Below, piece after piece: positions 1,781 to 61,612 of a stretch of 64,000 nt of DNA. The first letter of the stretch is position 1, and every line of letters starts with the position of its first letter. A program made the translations under genes and the position numbers. Source of the DNA: Escherichia coli (GTDB lineage: Bacteria > Pseudomonadota > Gammaproteobacteria > Enterobacterales > Enterobacteriaceae); the NCBI RefSeq assembly GCF_044324875.1, contig NZ_CP172185.1. One strand, written 5' to 3'. The notes beneath the pieces are model-generated. The model was given only the letters and a program-made list of their open reading frames with translations, was not told the DNA's origin and made no database searches.

Positions 1781-2966
1781 GTCAGTGCACACTAACACTT
1801 CGTTGTGGTCGAAGGGGATGAAAGCGGTTATCGTGGCGCAGTTTCTCTCTGCGTTTGGCGATAATGCGCTGCTGTTTGCCACTCTGGCGTTACTGAAAGC
1901 GCAGTTCTATCCGGAGTGGAGCCAGCCCATCCTGCAAATGGTGTTTGTAGGTGCTTACATTCTTTTTGCGCCGTTTGTCGGACAGGTGGCGGATAGCTTC
2001 GCCAAAGGCCGGGTGATGATGTTTGCCAACGGCCTGAAGCTGCTGGGCGCAGCCAGTATCTGCTTTGGTATCAATCCGTTTCTCGGCTATACGCTGGTGG
2101 GTGTTGGTGCTGCAGCCTATTCACCGGCGAAATACGGCATTCTCGGCGAATTAACCACGGGTAGTAAGTTAGTGAAAGCTAACGGTTTAATGGAAGCTTC
2201 TACCATAGCGGCGATTTTGCTCGGTTCCGTAGCCGGTGGTGTACTGGCTGACTGGCATGTCCTGGTCGCCCTGGCCGCATGCGCACTGGCCTACGGTGGT
2301 GCGGTCGTTGACAATATCTATATTCCCAAACTGGCGGCGGCGCGTCCGGGGCAGTCCTGGAATCTCATCAACATGACCCGCAGTTTCCTGAATGCCTGCA
2401 CCTCGCTATGGCGCAATGGTGAAACGCGTTTTTCGCTGGTGGGCACCAGTTTATTCTGGGGAGCAGGTGTCACGCTGCGTTTCCTGTTGGTGCTGTGGGT
2501 ACCGGTGGCGCTGGGCATTACCGATAACGCTACGCCGACCTATCTCAACGCGATAGTAGCGATTGGTATCGTGGTTGGCGCAGGTGCGGCAGCGAAGCTG
2601 GTTACGCTGGAAACCGTGTCACGCTGTATGCCAGCCGGGATTTTGATTGGCGTGGTGGTTCTGATTTTCTCCCTGCAACACGAGCTGCTGCCAGCCTATG
2701 CCTTGTTGATGCTGATTGGCGTGCTGGGGGGCTTTTTTGTCGTTCCGCTCAATGCGTTGCTACAGGAGCGGGGTAAAAAAAGCGTCGGGGCGGGGAATGC
2801 GATTGCAGTACAAAACCTTGGCGAAAACAGCGCCATGTTGTTGATGCTGGGCATTTACTCGCTGGCGGTAATGGTAGGCATCCCGGTCGTGCCCATTGGC
2901 ATTGGCTTCGGTGCGCTATTTGCGCTGGCAATAACGGCGCTGTGGATCTGGCAGCGCCGTCATTAA
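1773..2966 (+). CDS. lplT: lysophospholipid transporter, MFS family
   Basis: 397-aa ORF, highly hydrophobic multi-TM protein, overlaps the aas stop; recognised from memory. Confidence 0.9.
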
Positions 2967-2970
2967 TATT

Positions 2971-2994
2971 TAACGCCGGTTTTAACCGGCGTTA
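2971..2994. terminator. palindromic hairpin between convergent lplT and tas (taacgccgg-tttt-aaccggcgtta)
   Basis: Perfect inverted repeat read directly; no strong T-tract, so efficiency uncertain. Confidence 0.35.
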
Positions 2995-2997
2995 ATC

Positions 2998-57433: not shown

Positions 57434-57497
57434 ACTGTCTGTGCTGCTCCCAGCATTGGCATTGGACGGAACCTATTTTGACTCGACAAGACGTCCA

Positions 57498-60254
57498 TTA
57501 CCCGAGAATTTTGCTGGCTTCGCGCGCGACATTATCCATCTCGTCCAACAGTTCCAGCAGCTCCGGCTCCAAATCTTCTTCTTTAGTACCGCTACGTAGC
57601 TGTTGTTCGATCAGCTGGCAGAGATTCTTCATACGCGGCACACCGCTATAGCCGCAACTGCCATGCAGTTTATGAATCAAATCAACCAGGCCTTCCGGGT
57701 TTTCTCCAACCAGCTGTTCCTCAACTTTGTTGCGAACTTCAGGCAGGAAATCGAGTAACATTTGCAGCATATCGCGCGCTAAATCGGTTTTTCCTGCTGC
57801 CTGGCGTAGTGCCAGTTGCCAGTCGAGGGTCGCATTCGGGTTCACCACAATTTCGTTGACTTCGGGCGTCACGACGCGAGACGAAATACCGCTGCCAGGC
57901 TTGTAGCGCAACAACAAATTATGCAATCGCTCTTCTTCAATCGGTTTCGCCAGATAATCGCTCATCCCTGCGCCAAGCAGCTTCTCTTTTTGCCCGGCCA
58001 TTGCATGCGCCGTTACCGCGATAACTGGCGTTTGTTGCTGATGGGGGAGCTGGTGGATGAGTTCGCAGGCCCGAATGCCGTCCATGTCCGGCATTTGAAT
58101 ATCCATTAAGATCAAATCGAACGGCATCTGTTTCGCCCGTTCAACCGCCTGATGCCCGCTATCGCAAAGTTCCACATGTTGCACCATATCTTCCAGCAAT
58201 GCGCCGATAAGTTTCAGGTTAGCGGGGTTGTCATCAACCGCCATGACTGTCATTGCCAGCTTACTTTCATCGGTTACAGGCAAAAGCGTGTTTTGTTTGT
58301 GATGACAAAATTCCGTCAGGGCAGGTAACAGGCGCGTAGGTGTTAATGGTTTCAGCAGACACGCGCCGATACCATCTTGCTTAAGTTTTTCAGCATTGAC
58401 TTGTGCATGGCAAGGAAGTGCCAGCATCAGGAAATCGGTCATCGATACCGCTTTCGCTAATCGCTCATGTTGCATTGTTAGCGGCTCGCGGAAGGTCACC
58501 GCAATGCCTAATAACATCATGTCGTAATGCGCGGGAGGCAGCGCGGAGAACGTTGGGCTATAAACCACTTCCAGCGGCGTTTCACTTAAAATATCCAGCG
58601 TGCATTGCGCTGCTGCGGAGTTTGGTTCGACATAGGCCAGGCGCTTGCCGGCGAGGCACTGGGTGGATGGCCCTTCGATAATAATGTTCGGGTTCAGATC
58701 GAGATTAATGTGGAACCAGAAAGTTGAACCGCGATTCGGCTGGCTATGGAACGAAATATCGCCGCCCATTTCATTAACCAGTTTTTGTGTAATCACCAGC
58801 CCCAGCCCGGTGCCACCATGACGGCGGGAAATACTGGCATCAGCCTGTCGGAAGGCCTGGAATAAGCGCGATTGATCGCGTTCAGGAATACCAATGCCGG
58901 TATCCCGAATCTGCACTTCAATCTGCACTTTAGTATTACTCAGCGCACGTTTTTCTACCAGAATATCAATGTTGCCATTCTCGGTGAATTTAATTGCATT
59001 CCCTACCAGGTTAGTGATGATTTGCTGTAATCGCAGTGGGTCGCCAATTACGTTATCGGGCACGTCGCTCTTAATATTGAGCGTCAGTTCCAGCCCTTTA
59101 TCGTGAGAAGAATGTGCCAGCAGGGTAACGACTTCATCCAGCGTGCTGCGTAGTGGGAATGGAATACTTTCCAGAATCAGCTTACCTGCTTCCAGTTTCG
59201 AGAAGTCGAGAACATCATTAATAATTGCCAGCAAATTATTTGCCGAACGTTCAATCGTATTCAGGTGATCGCGCTGCGTTGGTGTTAATTCTGTTTTCAG
59301 CGTCAGGCGGGTAAAGCCAATAACACCATTCAGTGGTGTACGCAGCTCGTGTGACATATTTGCCAAAAACTCGGATTTAATACGCGCCGCTTCCTGGGCG
59401 CGCTTTTTCGCCAGATCCAACTCAACGTTCTGAATTTCCATCTGCTCCAGCGTTTCACGCAGATCGGACGTCGCCTGGTCGATATTGTGCTGCATCTCTT
59501 CGTGATAAGCAGCCAGCGACATTGCCATCGAGTTGATACCGTTTTTCAGCATATCCAGCTCGCCGAGCATAAATCCTTCCACCCGGCTGTCGAGTTGCCC
59601 GCGACGGATGCGGTCGACGGTATTCACCATGTTGCGAATCGGACCGGTTACATCGCGCATTAAGCGCCAGCCAAAAATAAGCGCAATACCGATACAAAAC
59701 AGCATCATCACGCTGGAAATAAAGATCTCTTTATATTGCTGCAAGCGAACCGATTTAAGATCCAGCTCCAGCGCAATATATCCCAGCATATTTTGACTAT
59801 TTTTGGCATCGCTACTGGGCGATTCGTCGGGGGAGTAACTCTCAGAAATAATCGGCGTGCGGAGGATCATAATATCGCCGTCACGAGTGACAGTGAGCTG
59901 GCGAGGAAACGGCACGTTGCTGCCGAGCTGCATTGATGAAGGATCAAGATGAAAATTGGAGGTGACAAAGAGTCGGTTATTTTCATCATAAACCGAAATC
60001 GCGCGAACAATATCGGAATGGCGACGATGCAGTACGCTTATTAACTGACCGATAGATTCGCGATTTTGCAGGCTCATGCCATATTCAGTAGAAACTGCAA
60101 GCGGCTCAATAATGCTGGCTCCGGCATCTTCCAGTTGACGCTGCAAGTCGTTATAGCGATGCACAACGAAAAAGATACTCAGCAATAAACCAATAAGGAC
60201 GGTCGGTGCCAGGATCAGAATCATCATGCGTGCGCGCAGGCTGTAGTTGGTCAT
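57498..60254 (-). CDS. barA: hybrid sensor histidine kinase BarA (HAMP-HisKA-HATPase-REC-HPt)
   Basis: 918-aa ORF with H-box ([12 protein letters not shown]), receiver and HPt regions. Confidence 0.95.
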
Positions 60255-60310
60255 GGAGTTCCGTTATGGGACAATTAAGGTCACACTGTTAAATTGAGAA
60301 AGTCTCGCCA

Positions 60311-61612
60311 ATGGCGCAATTCTACTCTGCAAAACGACGCACGACGACGCGTCAGATCATAACTGTTTCAGTCAACGACCTCGACTCTTTTGGTCAGGGC
60401 GTGGCGCGACATAACGGCAAAGCGTTATTTATTCCTGGATTACTGCCACAGGAAAACGCGGAAGTTACTGTTACTGAAGATAAAAAACAGTATGCCCGCG
60501 CTAAAGTCGTGCGCCGGTTAAGCGATAGCCCGGAACGCGAAACGCCACGCTGCCCTCATTTTGGCGTATGCGGTGGCTGTCAGCAACAACACGCCAGCGT
60601 GGATTTACAGCAGCGAAGCAAAAGTGCGGCACTCGCCCGATTAATGAAACACGAAGTCTCTGAAGTGATCGCCGATGTTCCCTGGGGCTATCGCCGTCGC
60701 GCGCGTTTAAGTTTGAACTACTTACCGAAAACACAGCAACTTCAGATGGGGTTTCGCAAAGCGGGCTCCAGTGACATTGTCGACGTTAAACAATGCCCCA
60801 TTTTAGTGCCCCAACTTGAAGCATTGCTGCCCAAAGTCAGGGCATGCCTGGACAGCTTACAAGCTATGCGCCATCTTGGTCATGTTGAACTGGTACAGGC
60901 AACCAGCGGCACGCTGATGATTTTGCGCCATACCGCACCGCTAAGTTCGGCTGATCGCGAAAAACTGGAACGCTTTTCGCATTCTGAAGGCCTGGATCTG
61001 TATCTCGCCCCCGATAGTGAGATACTCGAAACCGTCGCTGGTGAGATGCCCTGGTATGACTCAAACAGGTTGCGCTTAACTTTTAGCCCGCGCGATTTTA
61101 TTCAGGTCAATGCGGGTGTGAACCAAAAAATGGTAGCGCGTGCGTTGGAATGGCTGGATGTGCAACCTGAAGATCGCGTACTGGATTTGTTCTGCGGTAT
61201 GGGCAACTTTACACTGCCATTAGCGACACAAGCTGCCAGTGTGGTGGGTGTAGAAGGTGTTCCGGCGCTGGTGGAAAAAGGCCAGCAGAATGCGCGTCTT
61301 AATGGCTTACACAATGTGACGTTTTATCACGAAAATCTTGAAGAAGATGTCACAAAGCAGCCGTGGGCGAAAAACGGCTTCGATAAAGTGTTGCTGGACC
61401 CGGCGCGAGCAGGTGCCGCAGGTGTTATGCAGCAAATTATAAAACTGGAACCTATTCGTATAGTTTATGTATCCTGTAACCCTGCAACGCTGGCTCGGGA
61501 TAGCGAAGCGTTATTAAAAGCAGGATATACCATTGCGCGACTGGCGATGCTGGATATGTTCCCACACACGGGACATCTGGAATCGATGGTACTTTTCTCG
61601 CGCGTTAAATAG
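60311..61612 (+). CDS. rlmD: 23S rRNA m5U1939 methyltransferase (TRAM + Fe-S + SAM MTase)
   Basis: 433-aa ORF with Cys cluster [14 protein letters not shown]. Confidence 0.93.

Follow-up and report, generated by a model that had tools for sequence, protein, structure and literature searches.

Placement of all Chi sites on one strand of a 64-kb Escherichia coli segment carrying recBCD is consistent with the known leading-strand polarity of Chi

We analyzed the strand placement of Chi, the octamer 5'-GCTGGTGG-3' read by RecBCD, in a 64-kb stretch of an Escherichia coli chromosome (contig NZ_CP172185.1; the whole stretch is hereafter the window) that carries the recBCD genes. An exact search of both strands over the whole window, confirmed by a second independent count, identified nine matches to GCTGGTGG on the + strand and no match to CCACCAGC on that strand, that is, no Chi on the - strand. 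We regard it as very probable that the nine octamers are ordinary chromosomal Chi and that their shared orientation is the known genome-wide Chi polarity, seen here on a core segment (aas to relA) of the counter-clockwise replichore. The all-on-one-strand pattern is real but does not go beyond that genome-wide bias. Leading-strand polarity of Chi is not novel, having been in the textbooks since E. coli genomes were first analyzed, and the present result has little significance beyond quality control of an earlier sequence-only reading, whose by-eye scan was accurate (six of the nine Chi) and whose interpretation was right.

Nine Chi sites on the leading strand

That reading had listed six + strand Chi (2093, 11863, 19809, 23969, 54503 and 61267), placed 19809 in recB and 23969 in recD, reported none on the - strand and warned that a scan by eye might miss sites. 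All six coordinates proved exact, with no false positives; both gene placements and the empty - strand were borne out, and the warning was justified, 2435, 58049 and 63657 having been overlooked. Because the three overlooked sites also lie on the + strand, they strengthen the pattern rather than weaken it, and the case had been slightly understated. The computational scan thus returned counts that are not comparable between the strands (9:0). The nine Chi sites are as follows.

2093..2100, + strand: in lplT, sense, frame ACG-CTG-GTG-GGT (T-L-V-G); common to K-12 (2,973,535)
2435..2442, + strand: in lplT, sense, frame TCG-CTG-GTG-GGC; common to K-12 (2,973,193)
11863..11870, + strand: in ppdA, sense, frame TGG-CTG-GTG-GTT; common to K-12 (2,963,766)
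19809..19816, + strand: in recB, sense, frame CTG-CTG-GTG-GTC; common to K-12 (2,955,820)
23969..23976, + strand: in recD, sense, frame GTG-CTG-GTG-GTA; common to K-12 (2,951,660)
54503..54510, + strand: in gudP, sense, frame GTG-CTG-GTG-GGC; common to K-12 (2,920,792)
58049..58056, + strand: antisense to barA (gene strand ATC-CAC-CAG-CTC); strain-specific relative to K-12
61267..61274, + strand: in rlmD, sense, frame GCG-CTG-GTG-GAA; common to K-12 (2,914,037)
63657..63664, + strand: in relA, sense, frame TCG-CTG-GTG-GTC; common to K-12 (2,911,647)

Eight of the nine lie on the sense strand of + strand genes (two in lplT and one each in ppdA, recB, recD, gudP, rlmD and relA). All eight begin at codon position 3 and read nnG-CTG-GTG-Gnn, encoding Leu-Val followed by Gly, Val or Glu.

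The + strand of the window is the leading strand, the condition on which the sequence-only reading had made its interpretation depend. The whole window aligns at ~98% identity, in reverse complement, to MG1655 2,975,634->2,911,417. On NC_000913.3, oriC is annotated at 3,925,744-3,925,975, and the 28-bp dif core has a single match at 1,590,750-1,590,777. The homologous K-12 interval (2.91-2.98 Mb) lies ~1 Mb from oriC in the counter-clockwise direction, within the replichore copied towards lower coordinates, and its leading strand is therefore the K-12 bottom strand, equivalent to the + strand of the window. An 8-kb stretch spanning recB-recD has matches of at least 95% identity in 5,425 of 5,426 complete E. 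coli genomes, the best being strain NY1601 (99.6%). The NY1601 record (4.92 Mb) opens with dnaA-dnaN-recF-gyrB on the + strand, and that strand also carries the region, at 0.96-1.0 Mb, a layout relative to dnaA that is the same as in K-12.

Base composition agrees with this assignment. Of 31 overlapping 4-kb windows, 29 have a positive GC skew (the two exceptions being -0.013 and -0.005); the skew amounts to +0.046 overall, with G at 17,313 and C at 15,793, and the cumulative skew climbs nearly unbroken. An independent marker is provided by the FtsK-orienting polar sequences (KOPS, GGGNAGGG), which occur eight times on the + strand, at positions spanning 4088-56075, and never on the - strand of the window; three of the eight lie in recD (23314, 24508 and 24687). 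Like Chi, KOPS are G-rich octamers with a leading-strand polarity that converges at dif, but they are read by FtsK for chromosome segregation and not by RecBCD. Their total shows no significant excess in the window (8 against 4.8 expected, with 8 of 100 shuffles reaching 8). Synteny with oriC, dnaA and dif, GC skew, KOPS and gene orientation (66% of coding bases on the + strand) thus agree, supporting the proposal that the pattern is the known leading-strand bias of Chi, and the fixed replication orientation provides useful context for other findings in the window.

The same polarity is evident in K-12, of which we sampled 425 kb in 50-kb pieces. The interval homologous to the window carries Chi at 12:0, and the 275 kb centred on it (2,805,001-3,080,000) carries 42 leading and 13 lagging sites (76%). 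On the other replichore, the 150 kb sampled (600,001-750,000) show the polarity reversed, with 28 sites on the top strand and 18 on the bottom. Chi therefore displays a leading-strand preference that inverts between replichores. The original E. coli genome paper reportedly placed about three-quarters of Chi on the leading strand, with which the 76% measured here agrees. Genome-wide, E. coli has ~1,000 Chi, ~75% of them leading; the corresponding ~250 lagging sites fit the 13 counted here in 275 kb.

Compared with E. coli Chi as known, the sites in the window are alike in every respect that matters: the exact octamer, in the core chromosome, at ~1 per 7 kb on the leading strand, in the orientation readable by oriC-bound RecBCD, and mostly in the Leu-Val frame on sense strands. 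Nothing of substance sets them apart, the local 9:0 being more extreme than the ~3:1 genome-wide but within sampling variation. Eight of the nine positions are homologous to K-12 Chi. The strain-specific site is the one in barA at 58049, where K-12 reads GTTGGTGG, the two strains differing by a synonymous Gln codon (CAA/CAG). Conversely, four K-12 Chi are missing from the window, one in recC (CTG to TTG, synonymous), one in ptrA (GTG to GTA, synonymous) and two in gudD, the first by CTG to CTA (synonymous) and the second by two changes (GCTGGTGG versus GCCGGCGG). Individual Chi, those in recC and ptrA among them, therefore come and go within E. coli through silent point changes. In NY1601, the equivalent of 2093-23969 has the same five Chi as the window and none on the other strand.

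According to published work, Chi is found roughly every 5 kb, is over-represented in the core genome and has a leading-strand polarity (PMC8022716; PMC3784561). RecBCD enters at a double-strand end and degrades the DNA; on reaching Chi from the 3' side of the GCTGGTGG strand, it loads RecA on the Chi-bearing 3' strand (PMC3784561). Chi sites reverse their orientation at dif, and an enzyme loaded close to dif unwinds originward until it reaches a properly oriented Chi (PMC5638614). In the window, RecBCD entering the double-strand end of a broken fork and moving towards oriC would meet Chi from the 3' side, where it would switch from degrading DNA to loading RecA, leading to repair of the fork by recombination. 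Leading-strand Chi would be correctly oriented for an enzyme that travels to oriC from a broken fork or from a terminus-proximal break. Given that the sequences match exactly and that the cognate enzyme is present, we infer that the nine sites are active in vivo.

Coding, composition and the excess of Chi

Gene orientation and the CTG-GTG frame explain most of the direction of the bias. The window carries 33 + strand genes (38.2 kb coding) and 18 - strand genes (19.7 kb), placing 66% of the coding sequence on the + strand. CTG and GTG are preferred E. coli codons, and because in-frame Chi consists of CTG-GTG codons, Chi arises mainly on sense strands. The polarity is built up in three layers, comprising (i) co-directional transcription and replication for two thirds of the coding DNA, (ii) the nnG-CTG-GTG-Gnn form of in-frame Chi, with Leu-Val codons at all eight sense sites, and (iii) a further ~two-fold leading-strand excess beyond codon usage, in line with published reports that Chi is over-represented in the core genome.

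To set expectations for these contributions, synonymous codons were shuffled within each gene 1,000 times, keeping protein sequences and per-gene codon usage. This null yields 4.00 +/- 1.85 Chi on the + strand and 1.64 +/- 1.20 on the - strand (71% on +). The 168 octamers of Chi base composition, summed, occur 270 times on the + strand and 173 times on the - strand (61%). The probability that all nine Chi fall on the + strand accordingly rises from 0.002 at 50:50 to 0.012 at 61%, 0.046 at the 71% of the codon shuffle and 0.075-0.085 at 75-76%. General strand asymmetry (GC skew and gene orientation) therefore covers a large part of the Chi bias but fails to cover the ~two-fold + strand excess over the codon-shuffle expectation. 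The window illustrates that a large share of Chi strand bias is due to gene orientation and the CTG-GTG frame and is not Chi-specific.

The ~two-fold + strand excess over the codon shuffle is real, with nine or more + strand Chi arising at P = 0.010. Markov models of orders 3-5 expect 5.4-6.3 Chi on the + strand and 2.1-2.6 on the - strand, and dinucleotide-preserving shuffles give 2.05 +/- 1.42 for both strands together, none of 100 reaching nine. Chi is over-represented relative to oligonucleotide composition, power being modest in 64 kb. One-mismatch variants of Chi are only weakly skewed across the window (82:66), so the pattern is not a property of a broad Chi-like word family.

An account in which the pattern is solely a by-product of coding, through gene orientation, Leu-Val frequency, CTG/GTG preference and G>C skew, with no selection for Chi as a RecBCD signal, appears unlikely. 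It accommodates the eight in-frame CTG-GTG sites on the sense strands of + genes, as well as the + strand shares expected from the codon shuffle and from the composition-matched octamers. Furthermore, other codon-derived octamers are as skewed as Chi in the window (CTGGCGAT 15:4, GGCGCTGA 11:1, GTTGCTGG 10:1). Coding alone, however, leaves nine + strand sites where the codon shuffle gives 4.0 (P ~0.01) and where Markov orders 3-5 fall short of nine, a comparison in which one 64-kb window has little power to separate a coding by-product from selection on Chi. Nor does it sit easily with site 58049, which is antisense to its gene and still on the leading strand, or with published genome-wide work reporting a core-genome Chi excess beyond oligonucleotide composition (PMC8022716).

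Some caveats attach to reading the nine sites as ordinary Chi that follow the genome-wide polarity. Chi ranks only 6th of ~23,700 octamer pairs by strand difference in the window, and since other octamers are equally skewed, the skew by itself does not testify to selection on Chi in this segment. For 64 kb at the lagging density of K-12, a count of zero is somewhat low (Poisson P ~0.03-0.05). Placement on the replichore is derived from synteny with K-12 and NY1601, and a 138-kb stretch of K-12 that is free of lagging Chi, described below, could be taken as a local peculiarity. Nothing contradicts the reading of ordinary, leading-strand-polarised Chi.

Two stronger propositions were rejected. 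Chi is not a uniquely skewed word, given its 6th rank and the comparable skew of similar codon-derived octamers. The absence of lagging Chi does not represent a significant depletion either: under the codon shuffle, zero on the - strand has P = 0.167, and against the K-12 ratio or density P is ~0.03-0.08 for what is one window of ~70 per genome. The lagging zero is the low tail of a ~3:1 bias and no separate phenomenon.

The recBCD genes and their surroundings

The genes for the enzyme that would read these sites were located by mapping K-12 genes onto the window and by the annotation of the closest genome.

13208-16576, + strand: recC
16752-19640, + strand: ptrA
19633-23175, + strand: recB
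23175-25001, + strand: recD

All four (13208..25001) are transcribed in the direction of replication. recC, recB and recD are intact open reading frames (ORFs) whose DNA is 96.9-97.6% identical to the K-12 genes, and their counterparts in NY1601 are annotated as exodeoxyribonuclease V subunits. By this sequence similarity, the host encodes an E. coli-type RecBCD, predicted to recognise the Chi octamer.

The sequence-only reading had hinted in its title that the co-location of Chi with the RecBCD genes is meaningful. This part was not supported. Together, recC, recB and recD span 8,739 bases and contain two Chi, against 1.2 expected from the + strand density of the window; that two of the sites fall within recB and recD is a coincidence. 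A special link between Chi and recBCD was rejected on this count and on the loss here of the K-12 recC and ptrA Chi by synonymous changes.

In K-12, a stretch of 138 kb around recBCD (2,901,353-3,039,531) is free of lagging Chi and contains 17 leading Chi. The chance of a gap of at least 138 kb somewhere in the genome is ~0.1, by a simple exponential estimate that assumes ~250 lagging sites for a gap noticed post hoc. Part of the gap falls in a segment made up of pseudogenes with an IS2 copy (ygeF-ygeQ) that is poor in Chi on either strand. We regard the gap as sampling variation.

A local functional arrangement of Chi tied to recBCD, whether a zone purged of lagging Chi or Chi within recB and recD that protect or regulate the locus, is highly improbable. 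In its favour are the K-12 gap and the occurrence of Chi within genes of the locus (recB and recD here, also recC and ptrA in K-12). Against it, the two sites in 8.7 kb stand against an expectation of 1.2, the recC and ptrA Chi are not conserved even within the species, the gap has a probability of ~0.1 by the estimate above and includes the Chi-poor pseudogene and IS2 stretch, and leading-strand Chi are no denser in the window (9 per 64 kb) than in the region at large (median 10 per 64 kb). To our knowledge, there is no mechanism by which Chi within a gene would regulate it. We likewise give very little credence to the idea that the surroundings of recBCD (at least 64 kb here, 138 kb in K-12) are kept free of wrongly oriented Chi by local selection beyond the genome-wide bias; were this true, one reason might be that inversely oriented Chi do particular damage in that portion of the replichore.

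Neighbouring genes and other differences from K-12

All 51 K-12 genes of the interval (aas to relA) map onto the window, 50 of them as intact ORFs, with aas truncated by the window start. At the right-hand end, the relA stop codon lies at 63894, and ~60 bp further on, 63956-64000 is identical to MG1655 2,910,719-2,910,675, in the mazG start region. Since relA nearly abuts the start of mazG, the mazE-mazF toxin-antitoxin pair, which lies between these two genes in K-12, is absent from this strain.

The amiC-mltA interval contains one copy of an initiator-type tRNA-Met (anticodon CAT; 27954-28030, - strand), where K-12 (metZ, metW, metV) and NY1601 each have three tandem copies. Alignment of the locus shows two 110-bp units cleanly missing relative to the three-copy arrangement.

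Two intergenic spacers also differ. In the fucO-xni spacer, ~50 bp (43431-43480) do not align to K-12. The gudD-barA spacer contains, at ~57300-57480, a G/C-rich inverted repeat of ~180 bp (GGGAGAGGGGCGGGGTGAGGG ... CCCTCACCCTAACCCTCTCCCC) that has no K-12 counterpart at this position and is probably a small intergenic repeat element.

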